Assembly: GCA_965262725.1 (NCBI GenBank)
Contig: OZ253555.1
Span: 1,280,001-1,344,000, forward strand
Direction of reading: 5' to 3'
Length of the DNA: 64,000 bases
Source of the DNA: Dehalococcoidia bacterium
GTDB lineage: Bacteria; Chloroflexota; Dehalococcoidia; UBA2979
The position numbers were made by a program, and so were the translations under genes. Positions 1 through 25,266 of this stretch are shown here, in pieces (position 1 is the first letter of the stretch; each line of letters opens with the position of its first letter). The notes beneath the pieces are model-generated. The model was not told where the DNA came from. It was given only the letters and a program-made list of their open reading frames with translations, and searched no databases.

Positions 1-403
1 CCACGATCTCCGGCAACCGGTCGAAGCGGCCGTGCCGAAGGGTGACCGCGTCGCCGAAGGGGGCCAGCCGCCCGCGGGCGACGTCGAGTGCCTGTCGATC
101 GCGATCGACCCCGAGCAGCCGGACGCCCGGGGTCGCCTCGAGCAACGCGCGCGCGTGGCCGCCCGTGCCGAGAGTCGCGTCGACGTAGCGCCCGCCCGGT
201 CGCAGAGCAAGCAGCTGCACGACCTCTTCGGGCATGACCGGCTCGTGTACGGCGCCGGCGGCGTTCGGACCGGCGGGCCCTAGGGGCCCGCCGGGGCGGC
301 GCGCCCTCCGACCGGGGCCGCGACGCGTCGCCGAGCAGGCACCCGAACGGTGACGGGGAGACGGGCCCTCCCCCGCGGTGGGCGGGACGAGCGGAGTCGT
401 CAC
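1..403 (-). CDS. rsmH: 16S rRNA m4C1402 methyltransferase RsmH (N-terminal part; runs off the window)
   Basis: Manual minus-strand translation gives HEPVMPEEVVQLLALRPGGRYVDATLGTGGHARALLE...LLGVDRD, the RsmH motif. In-frame GTG at 403 overlaps the mraZ stop (GTGA). Not in the ORF track; exact start uncertain. Confidence 0.9.
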   Translation of the reverse strand, partial: MTTPLVPPTAGEGPSPRHRSGACSATRRGPGRRARRPGGPLGPAGPNAAGAVHEPVMPEEVVQLLALRPGGRYVDATLGTGGHARALLEATPGVRLLGVDRDRQALDVARGRLAPFGDAVTLRHGRFDRLPEIV

Positions 404-825
404 GATCCAGGCTCGCCGCGAGCATCGGCTAGCGCGGCCGCCGTCTGCTCGCGCTCCCAACGCTCCGGGCTCCACAGCTCGACGTAGTCGCCGCACCCGA
501 TCACGACGGCGCGGCTCTCCAGGGCCGCAGCCTCGCGCATCCCCGCAGGCAGCAGCACTCGGCCCTGCCCGTCGAGTTCGACGGTGAAGGCGCCGGGCAG
601 GAAGCCCCGGCGCACCCGCCGGCCCCCGATGTCGCGCGTGCTGACGTGCGCTCCGAGCCGGGAGCGGACCTCCTCCTCGAACCCCTCCTGCGTGTAGAGC
701 TCGACGCAGCCGTCCCCGCTCGCCCGCAGGACGCCCCCGCCGGCAAAGGCGTGGCGATAGCGAGCCGGGACTGCCACCCGGCCACGGTCGTCGACCGCGT
801 GATCGAAAGAACCGAAGAAGTACAC
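400..825 (-). CDS. mraZ: Division/cell-wall cluster transcriptional regulator MraZ
   Basis: FFGSFDHAVDDRGRVAVP and LDGQGRVLLP (two DxxGR motifs), plus IGCGDYVELW. Lies upstream of rsmH. GTG start at 825 follows GGGGA. Confidence 0.93.
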   Translation of the reverse strand: MYFFGSFDHAVDDRGRVAVPARYRHAFAGGGVLRASGDGCVELYTQEGFEEEVRSRLGAHVSTRDIGGRRVRRGFLPGAFTVELDGQGRVLLPAGMREAAALESRAVVIGCGDYVELWSPERWEREQTAAALADARGEPGS

Positions 826-870
826 GCTGTCCCCGCTGCGCTCCCGGACGCTCGTGCGGAATAGGGAATA

Positions 871-930
871 CGCCCCATTCTGCCCCATTGCAGCTCCGAG
901 AAGCTATCACATGCCCCACCGCCCTCACAA
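871..930 (-). promoter_or_regulatory. Putative MraZ-binding direct repeats upstream of mraZ
   Basis: Minus strand shows GTGAGG, GTGGGG, ATGGGG and ATGGGG boxes, the last two exactly 10 bp apart. Resembles the known TGGGN/GTGG MraZ boxes. Confidence 0.55.
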
Positions 931-1016
931 CCGAGCCCGCGCGGCACCACGGAGGGCGTCGCCTCTTGCCCGTCGACGCCGATCGGGCGCACCGTGAGTA
1001 CGGTGGAGGGCTGGCG

Positions 1017-1559
1017 ATGGCGTTGCGTGCCGGCGTCCTGACGGTGTCCGATGCGGGGGCCCGCGGCGAGCGTGACGACACGGCCGGGCCCGCTGTCGCC
1101 GCGGCGCTCGCCGGCGCCGGGTTCGCCGTGGCGGCGAGCGCACTCCTCCCCGACGAGGAGGGCGAGATCGCCGCCCTCTTGCGCCGCTGGTGCGACGACG
1201 AGGACGTCGCCCTCGTCGTGACGACCGGCGGCACCGGACTCGCGCCGCGCGATCGCACGCCGCAGGCCACGGCCGGGGTGATCGACTACGAAGTCCCGGG
1301 CCTGGCCGAGGCGATGCGCGCGGCCGGCCGCAACTCTACGCCGTTCGCCTCGCTCTCCCGGGGCCTCGCCGGCGTGCGCGGTTCCACCCTGCTCCTGAAC
1401 CTCCCCGGCAGCGAGAGCGGCGCGACGGAGAGCATCGCGGCCGTGCTCGGAGTGCTCCGCCACGCGTGCACGCAGCTCTCCCTCCCGCGATCCGGCGGAC
1501 CGTCGGGCGCCGACCCCGACACAACGCACGCCGAGCTCGCGGCCGGTTCCGCGGAGTAA
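1017..1559 (+). CDS. mog: Molybdopterin adenylyltransferase MogA/MoaB family
   Basis: VLTVSD...DDTAGP, TTGGTGLAPRDRTPQAT, SLSRG and NLPGS motifs. ATG 1017 follows GGAGGG. Confidence 0.9.
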   Translation: MALRAGVLTVSDAGARGERDDTAGPAVAAALAGAGFAVAASALLPDEEGEIAALLRRWCDDEDVALVVTTGGTGLAPRDRTPQATAGVIDYEVPGLAEAMRAAGRNSTPFASLSRGLAGVRGSTLLLNLPGSESGATESIAAVLGVLRHACTQLSLPRSGGPSGADPDTTHAELAAGSAE

Positions 1560-1566
1560 CCCCGGC

Positions 1567-2316
1567 GTGCGCATCGACGTGCTGACGCTCTTTCCCGGCA
1601 TCCTCGAGGCGCCGCTCCGGGAGACGATCCTCGGGCGCGCCCGAGAGTCCGGCGTGCTTGAGGTCGTGATCCACGATCTCCGACCTTGGGGGCTCGGCCG
1701 GCACCGGTCGGTGGACGACTACCCGTTCGGCGGGGGGCCGGGGATGGTCATGCGGCCCGAGCCGTTCTTCACCGCCGTCGAGGCGATCCAGCTCCTCTCG
1801 GAGCCGGCGGCCGAGGTGGTCCTGCTGACACCCCAGGGACGCCGCCTCGATGCGGCCCTCGCCGCGGATCTCGCCGCCAGACCGCGCCTGCTCATGGTCT
1901 GCGGCCGCTACGAGGGGGTCGACGAAAGGGTCCGCGAGCACCTCATCGATCGCGAGGTAAGCGTCGCTGACGTAGTGCTCTCCGGTGGCGAGATCCCGGC
2001 GCTCGTGCTGATCGACGCGGTGGCGCGCCGGATCCCCGGCGTGCTCGGCGCCGAGGCCTCCCTGGCTGAGGAGTCCTTTGACGAGGGGCTGCTCGAATAC
2101 CCGCAGTACACGCGTCCCCGCGACTTCCGCGGCTGGCCCGTCCCTCCGGTCCTGCTCTCAGGTGATCACGGGGCGGTGGCGCGCTGGCGCCGGGGTGAGC
2201 GGGTACGCCGCACGCACGAGCGCCGGCCGGATCTTCTCCCCGGCGCCGCCCTCACCGAGCGCGAGCGGGCCTTCCTCGCCGACCGGTCCGCCGACGGCGG
2301 GGGCCCGGTTGACTGA
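1567..2316 (+). CDS. trmD: tRNA (guanine37-N1)-methyltransferase
   Basis: VDDYPFGGGPGMVM, CGRYEGVDERV, VLSGGEIPA, LLEYPQYTRP. Confidence 0.97.
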   Translation: MRIDVLTLFPGILEAPLRETILGRARESGVLEVVIHDLRPWGLGRHRSVDDYPFGGGPGMVMRPEPFFTAVEAIQLLSEPAAEVVLLTPQGRRLDAALAADLAARPRLLMVCGRYEGVDERVREHLIDREVSVADVVLSGGEIPALVLIDAVARRIPGVLGAEASLAEESFDEGLLEYPQYTRPRDFRGWPVPPVLLSGDHGAVARWRRGERVRRTHERRPDLLPGAALTERERAFLADRSADGGGPVD

Positions 2317-2420
2317 CCCCCGGCGGCCTCGACTCTGTGGTGGGGGGCGGCTAGACTGCGATCCTTCCTGTCCCATCGGCACCGCGCCGGGATGGCGACC
2401 GATTCGGGGGAGCAGTCGCC

Positions 2421-2780
2421 ATGCCGACCATCGACTTGCGCAAGCTGGCGCCGGAGCGCAACGTCGCCATCCCGGATTTCGGGGCTGGCGATACGGTGCG
2501 CGTCTTCGTGCGCGTCGTCGAGGGCGAGCGCGAGCGCATCCAGCCCTTCGAGGGCGTCGTTCTGCGCGTGACGAGGGGACCGGGCGGGAGCTTCACCGTC
2601 CGCCGCATCGCCTCCGGCGTCGGCGTTGAGCGCAGCTTCCCGCTCTCCTCGCAGCGAGTGGTCCGCGTCGAGGTTGTGCGCCGCGGTCGCGTCCGCCGCT
2701 CGCGCCTCTACTACCTGCGCGGCCGCACGGGCCGCGCGGCGCGCGTGAAGGAAGCACGCCGAGCGCCGAGCAGCTCGTAG
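2421..2780 (+). CDS. rplS: 50S ribosomal protein L19
   Basis: [44 protein letters not shown]. Follows trmD. Confidence 0.97.
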
Positions 2781-2819
2781 GGCGGCGGACCGCCGCCTCA
2801 TTCGGCCTATCATCGGCCC

Positions 2820-5663
2820 GTGAGTAAGCCGCCCGCAGGCCCCACCCAGCCCGATCGGGAAGCGCCGGGACGCAGCCGCTACGTGCGCGTCGCCGTCAAC
2901 TCCGGGCAGCGCACGGCTATGACTTTCACCTACCACGTGCCGCCGGGGCGGGAGGTCCGTGCGGGCGAGGTCCTGCACGTCCCGTTCGGGGCGCGCACGC
3001 TGCAGGGGGTCGTCGTCGAGGGTCCATTCGACCTTCCCGGGTACGCCGGCACGACCCGCCCGATCGATCCCCCGGTGGAGGGCGCGCCGGTGATCACGGC
3101 GCGGCGCCTCGAGCTCGCGCAGTGGATCGCCGATCGCTACCTCGCGCCAGCTTGGGAGTCCTACGCGCTGATGCTGCCGCCGGGCGCGAGTGAGCGCCCG
3201 CAGACTCTTGTCGCGCGGGCAGCCGGCGGGCCGCAAAACGACGGTGATCCGGAGGCGCATCCCCGCCTGCCGGAGCCGCAGGCACGGCTCTACGCCCTGC
3301 TCGGCCCGGATCCGCGCCCCGCGGAGGAACTGCGCGCGAAGGCGGGCGAGCGCGCTTTCGACCAGGCGCTGGCAGCCTTGGTGCGACGGGGTCTGGCTGA
3401 GAAGCGCTATCGGCTGGGGCGGCCGCGCGGGCGAGCGCGCGTGGCCGAAGTCGTGCGCCTGCTCGTCCCGCCGGAGCGTGCGCGCGCTGCCGCGCTCGCG
3501 ATCGAGGGGCGCCGGCGGTCACGACCGGCGCGCGTGCTTCGTGCCCTGCTGGATGCGGGCGTGCCGCTTCCCTCCGAGGAGCTCGCCCGGATCGCGCGCG
3601 GCCGCGCGGTGGTCGAGGCGCTCGTGAGGGACGGTGTGCTTGAGCCCGCTCCCCCTGGCGAGGGGAGCGGATCCGGCCCGCGCGGGGAGGATTCCCCCGG
3701 GGCGCTGCGCCTCGCCGTCTCGCGCGAACGGGCGGAGCGCGCGGCGCTGCGCCTCTCGCGCACGCGCGCCGATGAAGCGTCGGCCGCACTCCTCGAGCGG
3801 CTCGCGGCCGACGCCGAGGGGGGCCGCGAGCCGACGGCGCGGCTAGCGGGCCTCGGCCGCGAGCTGGGCCCCGGCGCGCGGGCGGCGGTGGAGCGACTGG
3901 CCGCCGAGGCGCTCGTCGCCGTCGACGAGGTCCTGGATCGGCGCGACCCTCTCGCCGGACTCTCCGTGCTCACCCGCCCGCGCCCGGAGCTGATCGGCGA
4001 TCAGCGGGTCGCCTCGGCGCGGGCACGCGCGCTCATCGACCGCGCCGCGACGGGCGGGGATGGCGGCACGCCGCTGCTGATGGTGGGCGTGACCGGATCC
4101 GGGAAGACGGAGGTCTACCTCGATGCGCTGGCGCACGCCGTCGACCGCGGGCGGCGCGGCATCGTCCTCGTTCCCGAGATCGCCCTCACGCCGCAGACCG
4201 TGCGGCGCTTCGCGGAGCGTTTCCCCGGCCGCGTCGGCGTGCTCCACTCCGGGCTCTCGCTGGGCGAGGCATTCGACGAGTGGCACGCCGCGGCAGAGGG
4301 CCGCTACGACGTCGTCATCGGCTCGCGATCGGCGATCTTCGCGCCGGTGCCCGACCTTGGCCTAGTCGTAGTCGACGAGGCGCACGAGTGGACCTACAAG
4401 CAGGAGGATCCGCAGCCCCGCTACGACGCGCGCGACGTCGCGGCGCGCCTCTGCGAGCTCGCGGGCGCCGCGCTCGTGCTCGGTACCGCGACTCCGTCGG
4501 TGGAACAGTGGTATCAGGCGGTCTCGGGTGAACTGGAGCGGGTCGACCTTCCGCGGCGCGTGCGCCCGGTGCCGCAGCCCGGCGGGGGCGTCGCGGTGTG
4601 GCCCTCCGACGAAATGCCTGAGGTCGAGGTCGTCGACATGCGGGGCGGGCGCTCCCTCTTCTCGGAGCACCTCGCGCTGGCGCTCGGGGAGACGCTCGAG
4701 CGCGGCGAGCAGTCGATCCTCTTCCTCAACCGCCGGGGCCTCGCCGGCTTCCTGCTCTGTCCGCAGGGGCACTCGCCCGAGTGCTCCTCGTGCGACGTCT
4801 CGCTCGCGCTCCACACGCGGGGCGAGCCCTCCGGCGGCGCTCCCCCTCCAGACGAGGGCCCCGCCGCCCGCCGCCGGGTTCTGGTCTGCCACCAGTGCGG
4901 GCGCCGCCGGGGGGTGCCGGCGGCGTGCCCTCGCTGCGGCGGCGCCCTCGGGCCGGCGCGCGCCGGCACGCAGCGCGTGGAGCGCGAGGTGCGCCGCCTC
5001 TATCCGGCGGCCCGTGTCGCGCGCTGGGACCGAGACACGGCCCGCCGGCGCGATCATCACGAGGCGATCCTCGGGCGGTTCCTGGGGCAGGAGATCGACG
5101 TCCTGGTCGGAACGCAGATGGTGGCGAAGGGTCTCGACATCCCTGCGGTCACGCTGGTCGGGGTCGTGCTCGCCGACTACACGCTACGCGAGGGCGACTT
5201 CCGCTCGCGCGAGCGGACCTTTCAGCTGCTCGTGCAGGTCGGCGGCCGGGCCGGCCGGGCCGAGCGGCCGGGCCGGGTCGTGATCCAGACCCTGCAACCG
5301 GAGGACCGCGCCGTGGAGGCGGCCGCGGCGGGTGATGTTGATGGCTTCCTCGAGCAGGAACTGCAGTGGCGGGCGGCTCACGACTACCCGCCGATCCGGC
5401 GCCTGGCTCGGTTGCTGTTCGCACATCCACGCCTCGCCTATGGAGCGGAGGAGGCCGCCCGCGTGGCGACGGAGGTGCGCCGGCTGGCCGCCGGAGCCCC
5501 CCACGTCGAGGTGCTCGGGCCGTTGCGGCCGCGCTTCGCGCGCGTGCGCGGGCGCCACCGCTGGTCGATCGTCGTTAAGGCAGACGACCCGTCCACCCTC
5601 CTGCGCCCACTTGCCCTCCCCGCCGGCTGGCGTGTGGACATCGATCCGGCCAGCGTCGACTGA
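2820..5663 (+). CDS. priA: Primosomal protein N' (replication restart helicase)
   Basis: GVTGSGKTEVY, LVPEIALTPQ, VDEAH, LFLNRRG, Zn knuckles, GTQMVAKGLD, VDIDP. Confidence 0.95.
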   Translation: MSKPPAGPTQPDREAPGRSRYVRVAVNSGQRTAMTFTYHVPPGREVRAGEVLHVPFGARTLQGVVVEGPFDLPGYAGTTRPIDPPVEGAPVITARRLELAQWIADRYLAPAWESYALMLPPGASERPQTLVARAAGGPQNDGDPEAHPRLPEPQARLYALLGPDPRPAEELRAKAGERAFDQALAALVRRGLAEKRYRLGRPRGRARVAEVVRLLVPPERARAAALAIEGRRRSRPARVLRALLDAGVPLPSEELARIARGRAVVEALVRDGVLEPAPPGEGSGSGPRGEDSPGALRLAVSRERAERAALRLSRTRADEASAALLERLAADAEGGREPTARLAGLGRELGPGARAAVERLAAEALVAVDEVLDRRDPLAGLSVLTRPRPELIGDQRVASARARALIDRAATGGDGGTPLLMVGVTGSGKTEVYLDALAHAVDRGRRGIVLVPEIALTPQTVRRFAERFPGRVGVLHSGLSLGEAFDEWHAAAEGRYDVVIGSRSAIFAPVPDLGLVVVDEAHEWTYKQEDPQPRYDARDVAARLCELAGAALVLGTATPSVEQWYQAVSGELERVDLPRRVRPVPQPGGGVAVWPSDEMPEVEVVDMRGGRSLFSEHLALALGETLERGEQSILFLNRRGLAGFLLCPQGHSPECSSCDVSLALHTRGEPSGGAPPPDEGPAARRRVLVCHQCGRRRGVPAACPRCGGALGPARAGTQRVEREVRRLYPAARVARWDRDTARRRDHHEAILGRFLGQEIDVLVGTQMVAKGLDIPAVTLVGVVLADYTLREGDFRSRERTFQLLVQVGGRAGRAERPGRVVIQTLQPEDRAVEAAAAGDVDGFLEQELQWRAAHDYPPIRRLARLLFAHPRLAYGAEEAARVATEVRRLAAGAPHVEVLGPLRPRFARVRGRHRWSIVVKADDPSTLLRPLALPAGWRVDIDPASVD

Positions 5664-21296: not shown

Positions 21297-22628
<1,332 letters not shown>

Positions 22629-22705
22629 CGTCCGCGCCGATCGGGGTCCCGAACCGCTCATCTCCCGGGGTGGCGCCGACGGCGGTGCATGCGCCGCGCG
22701 CGCGA

Positions 22706-22711
22706 TATGCT
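22706..22711 (+). promoter_or_regulatory. Putative -10 box TATGCT, 6 nt before ATG 22718 (leaderless-type), upstream of the intron and nadK
   Basis: Same TAnnnT-6nt-start geometry as seen at priA, hemW, fmt and rarA in this window. Confidence 0.45.
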
Positions 22712-22814
22712 CCCCCGATGACGCAATCATCCACGTCGCGCGGATGCCGCGGCCTCCCCGACGGGATCGCGACGGCGCGCGCGTCGCTTCACGCCGTGTT
22801 CGAGTCCGTGCTGC

Positions 22815-23676
22815 GTGCGTCCGGAAGTCGAAGGGGTGGTGACGTGATGACGTGACCGGTCCGGAGACATGCTCGTTGCTGCCAGCCGGTGAGAGTCCGG
22901 CACGGGTAACTGTCAGGAGGCCCGTTAGCAGGTCGGCGGCGTGGACGGGAAACGGTCTGCGTCGAAGCCCGACGTCAAGAGCCCTATGAGGGGGAGCAAA
23001 CGTGCGGTCCGCAGCATGACGCGAAGTCTGCCGCGCCGTGAGACTCGCCTGTCTATTGACAGGACCAAGGAGGAGCCGAGCCCGGGTGGTCAGGGCGAAG
23101 GCCATGGACGAGGTGAAGATCCTGGAATGCAGCCTCAAGAAACCTCCCGGCGTATGGGACGTGGAACGTACGGAAGGTAGCGACGGGAACCGGAGAAGCC
23201 CTCCCCGGCCCGGCACCCTGTGAGAGGGCGTCGGAGCGAGGCGTCCTATAACCGGTCAGAGCCGGGAAGTGGACAGCCAGCCGGAAGGGTGGCGGAGGGG
23301 GTCGTAGTACCGCTGGAGCCGGACGGACAACATAACCGCCGGTGATGGGAAGGACCCCTACTTTGTCCGTGCATGTTGCTGGGGGTGTGGACTGGTGAGT
23401 GCCCCTCGGGGCTAGCAACCACTTGGTAGGGTTCGAGGCTCTCCGCACATGCTGTACCGGCTGGCCAAGGCACGACCCACGTTGTGGGGAGCGCTGCATG
23501 CCATCTGGTGAAGGGCATCGGTGAGCCGGATGAGGGAGAACCTCACGTCCGGTTCGATGTGGCAGGGGCTGGAGACGGACGCTGCTATGGCCGTGGAGTT
23601 GGGCACCACCGGGAAACCGGCTTGGAACTGATGCGCCACCGCCTACGGCTCGCACCGCGCCAGCCCCTGACCCTAC
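22815..23676 (+). mobile_element. ORF-less group II intron (ribozyme with deleted RT ORF)
   Basis: 5' GTGCG at 22815. DI closing stem TCCGG/CCGGA. DIII-like GGGGTCGTAGTACC...GGGAAGGACCCC. DV GAGCCGGATGAGGGAGAACCTCACGTCCGGTTC (23523-23555) with AGC triad and AC bulge. DVI GGCAGGGGCTGG/CCAGCCCCTG-A-CC with bulged A at 23670. 3' end ...CCCTAC. No RT-length ORF. Confidence 0.92.
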
Positions 23677-23695
23677 CGTGGAGGATCCGGTCCGT

Positions 23696-24568
23696 ATGAG
23701 CGCGCGCCGCGTCGTTGTCTGCTACCACCCCGGCATCGCCGGCGCGCGTGACCTGGCGGAGGGGATCTCGGAGCAGCTCCGTCGCGCCGCGTGCGAGCCG
23801 TGGATCGTCCCGCTCGGCGACGAGGGCGCGGTGGGCGTCGATCTCGCGGCTCAGGCGGAGGGCGCCGCTCTCCTGGTCTGTGTGGGAGGCGACGGAACCG
23901 TCCTGCGTGCCTCGGAGGCGGCGGGCCTCACCGGCACCCCGATCTTCGGCGTGCGCATGGGGCGCCTCGGCTTCCTGACGGAGGCGACGCCGCCGGGCGC
24001 CCAGTCGGCGCTCTCGAGAGTCCTCGCCGGCGAGGGGCGCGTCGAGGAGCGTGCACTGGTGCTCGCCACCATCGACGGCGGCGAGCCGTTGCACGCGCTC
24101 AACGACGTTGTGATCGGGCGTCGCTCGCTTGGGCACACGATCTCGGTCGGTGCGCGGCTCGACGGCGTTCTGATCGCCGAGTACCGCGCCGACGCCGTCA
24201 TCGTCGCGACCGCCACCGGCTCCACCGGCTACACGCTCTCGATCGGCGGGCCGGTGCTCACGCCGACGTCGCGGGAGCTGATCCTGATGCCGCTCGCGCC
24301 GCACCTGACGTCGCACAACCCGCTCGTCCTGCCCGGCGACACGAGGATTTCGCTCGAGGTCGCGCGCGGCGATGGGATGGTGGTCGTGGACGGCGTGCAC
24401 GAGCGCGCCATCGAGTCGGGCCAGCGCATCGAGGTGACAGGTTCGCCGCGCCGCGCCCGCTTCGCTCGGCTCGGGGACGAGGGTCAGTTCTATTCGAATG
24501 TCGCCGATCGGCTCGGCTGGCTTCGCTCCGACCACACGCTCGGCGCCGCGGGCGGCGAGCGACAGTAG
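23696..24568 (+). CDS. nadK: NAD(+) kinase
   Basis: VGGDGTVL, GRLGFL, ALNDVVI, ATATGSTGY.LSIGGP. Confidence 0.95.
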   Translation: MSARRVVVCYHPGIAGARDLAEGISEQLRRAACEPWIVPLGDEGAVGVDLAAQAEGAALLVCVGGDGTVLRASEAAGLTGTPIFGVRMGRLGFLTEATPPGAQSALSRVLAGEGRVEERALVLATIDGGEPLHALNDVVIGRRSLGHTISVGARLDGVLIAEYRADAVIVATATGSTGYTLSIGGPVLTPTSRELILMPLAPHLTSHNPLVLPGDTRISLEVARGDGMVVVDGVHERAIESGQRIEVTGSPRRARFARLGDEGQFYSNVADRLGWLRSDHTLGAAGGERQ

Positions 24569-24690: not shown

Positions 24691-25266
24691 ATGATCGAGG
24701 GCGAGACCAGTGCGATCGCGCCGCAGCCGGGGACGGGTCCGGCCGGGGTGCGGATCGAGCGAGCCACGGTGCACGACGCGCGCGACATCTGCGCGCTCAT
24801 CAACGTGTGGGCGGCGCAGGGGCAGATGCTGCCCCGCACGCTCGGCGAGACCTACGAGAACATCCGGGACTTTTTCGTCGTGCGGGAAGGCGGACGCCTC
24901 GTCGGCTGCGCCGCGCTCCACATCACATGGTCCGATCTCGCCGAGCTCAAGTCGCTCGCCGTGGATGAGCAGCGCCAGTCGTCGGGGTACGGTCGGGCGC
25001 TGGCGGAGGCGTGTGTCGCCGAGGGCCGGGCGCTCGGGCTTCAGCGGCTTTTCGCGCTCACCTATCGACCCGGCTTCTTCGAGCGGCTCGGCTGGGAGCA
25101 GGCCGACGTGATGTCGCTCCCGCGCAAGGTCTGGAACGAGTGCTACCGCTGCCCGAAGTTCCCGGGCTGCGAGGAGATAGCGATGGTCCTCGATCTCGAC
25201 GAGTCCTCCGCTCCCCTCACGCCACTGCCGCTCGCGACCGATCGCGGGGACGGCTCCGGCGCGTGA
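24691..25266 (+). CDS. GNAT N-acetyltransferase (short ArgA-like N-acetylglutamate synthase)
   Basis: MLPRT..YENIRDF, GCAALHITWSDLAELKSLAV, LPRKVWNECYRCPKFPGCEE. Confidence 0.85.
   Translation: MIEGETSAIAPQPGTGPAGVRIERATVHDARDICALINVWAAQGQMLPRTLGETYENIRDFFVVREGGRLVGCAALHITWSDLAELKSLAVDEQRQSSGYGRALAEACVAEGRALGLQRLFALTYRPGFFERLGWEQADVMSLPRKVWNECYRCPKFPGCEEIAMVLDLDESSAPLTPLPLATDRGDGSGA

Follow-up and report, generated by a model that had tools for sequence, protein, structure and literature searches.

The nadK locus and its intron

We analysed a 64,000-nt window of the Dehalococcoidia genome G000 (G000:C1:1280001-1344000; contig OZ253555.1; a 3.67-Mb genome in a single contig) in which a mobile group II intron interrupts a short upstream open reading frame (uORF) ahead of nadK, the gene for NAD kinase. 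Positions given without a genome prefix count from the first letter of this window. nadK is a single-copy gene (one tblastn match in the G000 genome), and its alignments to relatives begin at residue 1. The features of the locus, all on the + strand, are as follows.

21297..22628, +: clpX, the upstream gene (Pfam AAA_2, zf-C4_ClpX, ClpB_D2-small)
22680..22717, +: promoter-like block with the -10-like hexamer TATGCT (22706-22711) and a 6-nt spacer, kept in the related genomes G001-G004 and of a geometry found genome-wide
22718..22814, +: uORF exon 1 (ATG, 32 codons and base 1 of codon 33)
22801-22806, +: intron-binding site 2 (IBS2), CGAGTC, within uORF exon 1
22810-22814, +: intron-binding site 1 (IBS1), GCTGC, within uORF exon 1
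22815..23676, +: group II intron of 862 nt, GTGCG to CTAC, lacking an open reading frame (ORF); supported by Rfam, identical copies and intron-skipping contigs
22853..22855, +: TGA inside the intron that would end the uORF on unspliced RNA, ~840 nt 5' of nadK
23042..23047, +: candidate exon-binding site 2 (EBS2), GACTCG, proposed from its complementarity to IBS2
23086..23090, +: candidate exon-binding site 1 (EBS1), GTGGT, proposed from complementarity
23523..23556, +: domain V hairpin (Rfam alignments and fold)
23561..23672, +: long domain VI helix with a bulged A at 23670 (fold and Rfam RF00029 alignment)
23677..23699, +: uORF exon 2, ending in TGA at 23697-23699 and holding the Shine-Dalgarno-like GGAGGA at 23680-23685
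23696..24568, +: nadK (Pfam NAD_kinase, NAD_kinase_C)

An earlier sequence-only reading of this DNA had described a TATGCT hexamer, six nucleotides and an ATG at 22706-22720, in a geometry common to several long ORFs of the window. It had also described a frame that, when unspliced, runs into the intron and stops at the TGA at 22853-22855. We confirmed these coordinates and the shared geometry. We also confirmed that joining 22814 to 23677 gives a uORF of 39 codons whose TGA overlaps the nadK ATG at 23696 (ATGA), and that nadK has a GGAGGA of its own upstream, 10 nt 5' of its ATG.

The segment 22815-23676 is an ORF-less group II intron with exact boundaries. The Rfam family RF02003 (group-II-D1D4-4) matched 22883-23019 with 102.8 bits (gathering score 49). 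RF00029 (domain V/VI) matched 23521-23676 with 37.5 bits; an insertion of ~100 nt in domain VI keeps this score slightly under the gathering threshold of 40. The fold of domains V and VI was far more stable than expected (z = -4.9; equalled or bettered in 0/200 shuffles), and its bulged A at 23670 is the seventh base from the intron 3' end, where a branch point is expected at 7-8 nt. Both intron ends fit the group II rule 5' GUGYG / 3' AY, with GTGCG at 22815-22819 and a CTAC that ends at 23676. We observed no reverse transcriptase (RT) ORF within 22815-23676, in which the longest + strand ORF is at most 79 amino acids. A related protein with RVT_1 and GIIM domains is encoded by a larger intron elsewhere in G000.

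Copies, target sites and empty sites of the intron

G000 contains 24 full copies of the intron, all 100% identical over exactly positions 1-862, plus four interrupted or truncated copies. Intron sequence was present in 5/41 genomes searched (G000 included), with a 100% match in G000 only. The home site, which holds 13 of the 24 copies (one head-to-tail pair included), lies inside the RVT_1/GIIM gene of the larger related intron, a twintron arrangement. This larger intron is 86% identical to the 862-nt intron over the first 551 nt and 92% identical over the last 181 nt. The remaining 11/24 copies, among them the one at the nadK locus, occupy look-alike (ectopic) sites.

Common to the look-alike sites is CGAG(T) at about -14..-10, and most of them also have C-Y-R-C at -4..-1. 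At the nadK locus we observed both a perfect IBS2 (CGAGTC at -14..-9) and C-Y-R-C at -4..-1. GACTCG at 23042-23047 is the sole perfect Watson-Crick 6-mer partner of CGAGTC within the intron. The C-Y-R-C motif pairs with GTGG(T) at all four positions in 11/13 compared target sites, and at three of them in the remaining two. With G-U pairs allowed, IBS1 (GCTGC) is able to pair with GTGGT at 23086-23090; a second EBS1 candidate lies at intron position 22, and the region around the candidate EBS loops folded no more stably than shuffled sequence (z = -0.75). The intron lies where it does at nadK because the site mimics the home site in the RT gene of the larger intron.

Several other copies were observed in settings of their own. 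A twintron at G000:C1:1183051-1186912 (outer intron at 385-3320 of that stretch, inner intron at 1501-2362) carries the 862-nt intron in the middle of the RT domain, within the RVT_1/GIIM gene of a related intron of ~2.07 kb. By coordinates, all larger-intron copies seen (~12, and 3 of a third type that is 80% identical) carry the inner intron, so RT production may itself need inner-intron splicing. An uninterrupted maturase gene of these larger-intron types may not exist in G000. At G000:C1:549500-551223, two identical 862-nt introns stand head to tail within one twintron, as either a true tandem insertion or an assembly artefact. One ectopic copy (G000:C1:1821097-1824958, intron at 1501-2362) lies in sense orientation between codons of a long frame, with 500 stop-free codons and cadherin-type domains on each side. 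The spliced frame there comprises 1,550 codons, and the protein would need splicing of the intron. Another ectopic copy (G000:C1:1524130-1524991) seems to lie in a different RT gene; its flanks resemble a ...YGFxxGFRPG stretch, which we take to be an RT region.

Intron-less forms of the locus were observed at two evolutionary distances. In the congeners G001, G002 and G003, clpX is followed directly by nadK at a distance of 150-170 nt, and the intron is absent. Much closer to G000, two public runs from two studies (X14 and X17) each hold one contig (2,272 nt and 1,930 nt, respectively) in which 22813/4 is joined to 23676/7, so that exactly 862 nt are missing. Over ~1,140 flanking bases, the X14 contig differs from G000 by 7 letters (3+4) and the X17 contig by 1 (1+0). 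The promoter, the Shine-Dalgarno sequence and the start codon are identical in this intron-less form. The longest contigs of the two runs (48 kb in X14, 79 kb in X17) look like those of DNA metagenomes, and if the runs are DNA, the two contigs represent an empty-site allele of the same species. The junction is exact whether X14 and X17 are DNA or RNA. In nature, intron-bearing and intron-less alleles appear to coexist, and the intron is a recently spread mobile element at the nadK locus.

Intron sequence was also observed in a sponge metatranscriptome (X19), which contains a 263-nt contig identical to 22966-23228. This contig, which is unassignable to one copy, stems either from intron RNA or from DNA carried over. 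X19 also contains matches to domain V of other introns, and X20 is similar.

The sequence-only reading had proposed splicing as a candidate switch, on which translation of nadK and the following GNAT and NUDIX genes could depend or by which it could be tuned, with Mg2+, NAD(P) or stress as possible influences. The anatomy permits this: unspliced, the uORF stops ~840 nt short of nadK, and splicing restores the ATGA. Precedents for such control are the c-di-GMP group I ribozyme (PMC3984707) and the cold sensor Ll.LtrB (PMC7293003), as described in the excerpts of those papers that we drew on. Against this stand the 24 identical copies and a position explained by target mimicry, with nothing specific to this locus, and the absence of the intron from 3/3 congeners and from the near-identical contigs of two studies. 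An Rfam search of 22500-23900 at E up to 1 returned intron families only and no aptamer or other ligand-sensing RNA. Because the start signals are the same in the intron-less form, nothing in them is adapted to the intron. The proposed reach of the switch is weak as well: nadK and the GNAT gene are separated by a 122-nt gap, and the sole overlap is that of the GNAT TGA with the NUDIX GTG (GTGA, 25263-25266), a second coupled pair at the locus. The switch reading is not supported, and we consider recruitment of the intron as a regulator very improbable. If nadK does depend on splicing, a selfish insertion would have brought this about as a side effect.

Origin of the upstream reading frame

We compared the uORF with its counterparts in intron-less relatives, where the sequence-only reading had proposed to look for the frame and its overlap with nadK. 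Both were present. In 3/3 congeners with the clpX-nadK arrangement, a block matching 22680-22722 is kept with its TATGCT, 6-nt spacer and ATG. It opens uORFs of 27 codons in G001, 34 in G002 and 26 in G003, compared to 39 in G000. The three congener uORFs are in phase, each with a TGA that overlaps the nadK GTG (GTGA), so that stop-start overlap and phase are kept in 4/4 species though the four lengths differ. Such conservation of phase would arise by chance with a probability of ~(1/3)^3 = 0.04 if the lineages are independent; as they are related, the value is suggestive and no proof.

These alignments indicate that the uORF is more than a chance frame and predates the intron. The caveat of the sequence-only reading, that the frame match across the splice junction had roughly a 1-in-3 chance of arising anyway, thereby falls away, because precise excision of an intron from an older frame restores that frame automatically. 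Upstream of the nadK start, G002 and G003 have GGGAGG. The nadK GTG of G001 has no Shine-Dalgarno-like motif upstream, so coupling would be needed there, and the lack of the motif fits such a need. After splicing, the nadK frame would be open from 22612 onwards and that of the uORF from 21881 onwards; this openness is uninformative because it is expected in DNA so rich in GC.

To look for more relatives, we scanned genome and metagenome contigs with a 16-letter pattern (15 specified bases and one N), which returned at least 119 and at least 117 stretches, nearly all of them chance matches. A tblastn filter of the 236 listed loci left two real ones, L125 (which is G002) and L215 (99.8% identical to G003). 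Among the pattern matches listed, there was no further species with the uORF locus. The four leaders all fold into strongly structured forms, among which we found no shared structure that hides the nadK start.

A fifth genome of the genus, G004, suggests where the uORF came from. In G004 a gene for a 253-aa protein with S4 and FtsJ domains (TlyA-like) precedes nadK, and its TGA overlaps the nadK GTG. This tlyA-like gene starts at a block with TATGCT, 7 nt and ATG, and the alignment shows the block to be homologous to the start block of the short uORFs. Because the G004 gene and the short uORFs share this start block, the uORF is best read as the stub of a lost tlyA. With the TlyA query used, we found a TlyA-like protein in 1/5 genomes of the genus (G004 only); the four genomes that gave no match are 91.6, 85, 73 and 93% complete. 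Across the family, tlyA ends in [A/G]TGA at nadK in 8/8 tlyA-bearing loci. In the simplest history consistent with these comparisons, tlyA and nadK ancestrally overlapped by 4 nt; tlyA was then lost in the G000-G003 lineage and a stub was left. The tlyA origin of the uORF is a new finding of the present analysis. The clpX-tlyA gap of G004 (L048, contig 6, ~470-620) ends in a presumed transposase C-terminus.

The open nadK frame upstream of its start also raised the candidate that the spliced message encodes an N-terminally extended NadK. The spliced nadK frame, open from 22612, does offer an ATG at 22744. We rejected this candidate, which we regard as scarcely credible: the nadK alignments to three congeners start at residue 1 of the short form, a tlyA-like gene abuts the nadK start in G004 and seven relatives and leaves no room, and the extension is arginine-rich, as is typical of off-frame GC-rich sequence.

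A proposed ribosome relay to nadK

To assess how the stub might be translated, we considered its start. TATGCT at 22706-22711, followed by 6 nt and the ATG at 22718 with no Shine-Dalgarno sequence, fits a leaderless -10 geometry. Genome-wide, TANNNT-N6 or TANNNT-N7 followed by ATG or GTG opens a long ORF with high GC content at third codon positions (GC3) in 93/277 and 63/248 cases, respectively. Spacing 0 gives a rate of 23%, and the remaining spacings from 1 to 15 give 7-17%. In 52/93 of the spacing-6 ORFs the start was not preceded by another in-frame ATG or GTG, and there was no -35 signal. We also observed that ~100 long ORFs beyond background have TANNNT 6-7 nt before the start, often with C at -1. 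Judging by these rates, leaderless-type starts seem common in G000.

A sigma-70 and terminator consensus scan of 22500-23800 called no promoter at TATGCT, where a -35 is lacking, and no terminator-like site 3' of clpX. The scan requires a -35 element, and the leaderless-type promoters of this genome lack one. Given the spacing, a leaderless start at 22718 is plausible. The excerpt of the relevant paper that we drew on describes a 5'-terminal AUG as generally translated (PMC9031893).

Together, these observations suggest the following account. The family ancestor would have had a tlyA-like rRNA methyltransferase gene joined to nadK by an [A/G]TGA overlap, and ribosomes finishing tlyA would have restarted on nadK. 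Loss of tlyA in the G000-G003 lineage would have left a stub of 26-39 codons that kept the promoter-like block, the start and the overlap with nadK. In G000, transcription would begin at the A of the ATG at 22718. The stub would most likely load ribosomes at this 5'-terminal AUG and pass them to nadK by termination-reinitiation, and the GGAGGA inside the stub may aid the restart. Very recently, reverse splicing would have placed the mobile ORF-less intron in codon 33 of this stub. As long as the RNA is unspliced, the stub would end 40 nt into the intron and the relay would be broken. Splicing, which would need a maturase supplied in trans, would restore it; in the larger-intron copy examined, the gene for this maturase is itself split by the same intron. 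Dependence on splicing would then be an incidental cost or a neutral side effect of a selfish insertion.

We give this account as a whole, in which a tlyA stub relays ribosomes to nadK and the intron is a recent selfish arrival and not an evolved regulator, a probability of roughly 0.6. Because nadK is present in a single copy, the strain must either splice adequately or use the Shine-Dalgarno sequence of nadK itself. A stronger form of the account is rather doubtful. It holds that the relay stub is under selection and still needed by nadK, so that the intron makes NadK supply depend on maturase-assisted splicing.

A different view of the stub is that its translation is immaterial. The old tlyA promoter would then drive a structured leader of ~100 nt and nadK would use its own Shine-Dalgarno sequence, with the intron near-neutral and splicing of little matter for NadK. 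We hold this to be a tentative possibility, weaker than the relay, and much of what speaks for it weighs against the relay as well. The nadK gene of the window has both GGAGGA and ATG, so coupling may be unneeded there, and the GGGAGG of G002 and G003 is of the same kind. The uORF peptides are not conserved across the four species. Only the stub of the window has a coding-like GC3 (0.85); the other three have values of 0.74-0.79 and no codon periodicity. Genome-wide, short leaderless-type ORFs that overlap long ORFs showed no excess at spacing 6-7 (9/277 for N6 and 9/248 for N7, compared to 3-14 at other spacings), in a test of 4- or 8-nt overlaps that is crude, since it also counts every [A/G]TGA that happens to lie within a long open frame. 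The conservation of phase rests on three further species that are mutually related, and openness tells little, since all four species have an open nadK frame throughout the region.

Further points against the relay account concern transcription and splicing. With no terminator after clpX, read-through RNA may make the stub ATG an internal start that lacks a Shine-Dalgarno sequence. The base at +1 is A in 8/13 compared target sites and C at the nadK locus, so exon ligation could be inefficient with a 3' exon that starts with C. If the X14 and X17 runs are RNA, their contigs would represent spliced message and not an empty allele. In the RNA run X19, and in X20 (marked 'RNA?'), the matches are intron-internal only and the exons are uncovered.

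Three observations speak against an untranslated leader. The ATG and the exact overlap are kept in 4/4 species at four different lengths, the GTG start in G001 lacks a Shine-Dalgarno-like motif, and the spacing from the -10 element to the ATG is the modal leaderless spacing, which would place a translatable AUG at the 5' terminus. We favour the relay account.

Relation to known systems

We compared the locus with systems described in the literature, drawing on excerpts of the papers cited here, and the likenesses and differences below hold for those excerpts. The closest parallel for the intron is Thermosynechococcus elongatus, in which the ORF-less TeI3 and the RT-encoding TeI4 spread in trans and form twintrons whose inner introns are identical (Mohr, Ghanem and Lambowitz 2010, PMC2882425). 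As in that system, a deletion-derived ORF-less intron is present in many identical copies and would be spliced and mobilised in trans by the protein of a relative; it also has a fixed insertion site in the protein gene of the larger intron and other sites with good EBS/IBS pairing. One difference from TeI3/TeI4 is the host, here a Dehalococcoidia bacterium of high GC content that is apparently associated with sponges. Another is the home site, which falls midway through the RT domain instead of between the first two ATGs, so that inner splicing would be needed to make RT from every twintron copy seen. The nadK-locus copy, moreover, sits in a short ORF that is putatively coupled to an essential gene.

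In mycobacteria, leaderless short ORFs have been described at the head of polycistronic mRNAs (Shell et al. 2015, PMC4633059; Canestrari et al., bioRxiv 10.1101/834739). The nadK stub resembles these as a short unannotated ORF at a presumed 5' end, upstream of a metabolic gene and with a possible effect in cis. The mycobacterial ORFs act by amino-acid-sensitive stalling or attenuation, whereas in the nadK stub the start, the phase and the 4-nt overlap are kept and the peptide is not. This pattern, a conserved start, phase and overlap with no conserved peptide, points to a simple ribosome relay. Termination-reinitiation coupling at ATGA/GTGA overlaps has been reported (Huber et al. 2019, PMC6728339). 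The loci studied here have the same 4-nt stop-start overlap (8/8 tlyA-nadK loci and 4/4 stub-nadK genomes), but here the upstream ORF would be the vestige of a lost gene.

Two further systems bear on splicing within a message. The c-di-GMP-dependent group I ribozyme of Clostridioides difficile controls translation by splicing (Lee et al. 2010, in PMC3984707). There, as would be the case at nadK, splicing alters ribosome access to a downstream start codon; the ribozyme has an aptamer, alternative splice sites and a fixed position, whereas the group II intron at nadK is mobile, exists in many copies and occupies a site that seems to be polymorphic. In Lactococcus lactis, Ll.LtrB lies in the relaxase gene and lowers host gene expression (Qu et al. 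2018, PMC6003770). Both are bacterial group II introns within host messages that are expressed, but Ll.LtrB has its own protein and interrupts a coding gene, whereas the nadK intron is ORF-less and interrupts an upstream stub.

A keyword search of the literature found no paper on a group II intron in a coupled uORF or on a stub kept for coupling, and such papers may exist in print. To our knowledge, bacterial group II introns rarely touch housekeeping expression. From its sequence, the locus is a combination of known kinds of element: a mobile group II intron that lacks an ORF and sits ectopically, and an upstream ORF that is putatively leaderless. What it adds are two points that are modest extensions of known principles and bring no new mechanism. 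First, an intron copy lies in what is probably the translated leader of the sole NAD kinase gene, and near-identical intron-less sequence is present in other samples. With these natural alleles one could measure what a bacterial group II intron does to an essential gene, and if NadK does depend on splicing, the locus is a natural experiment on intron cost and gating in a bacterial housekeeping pathway. Second, a lost gene may leave behind only its start and its stop-start overlap, which suggests that nadK needed the ribosome traffic of its upstream neighbour and not the TlyA protein.

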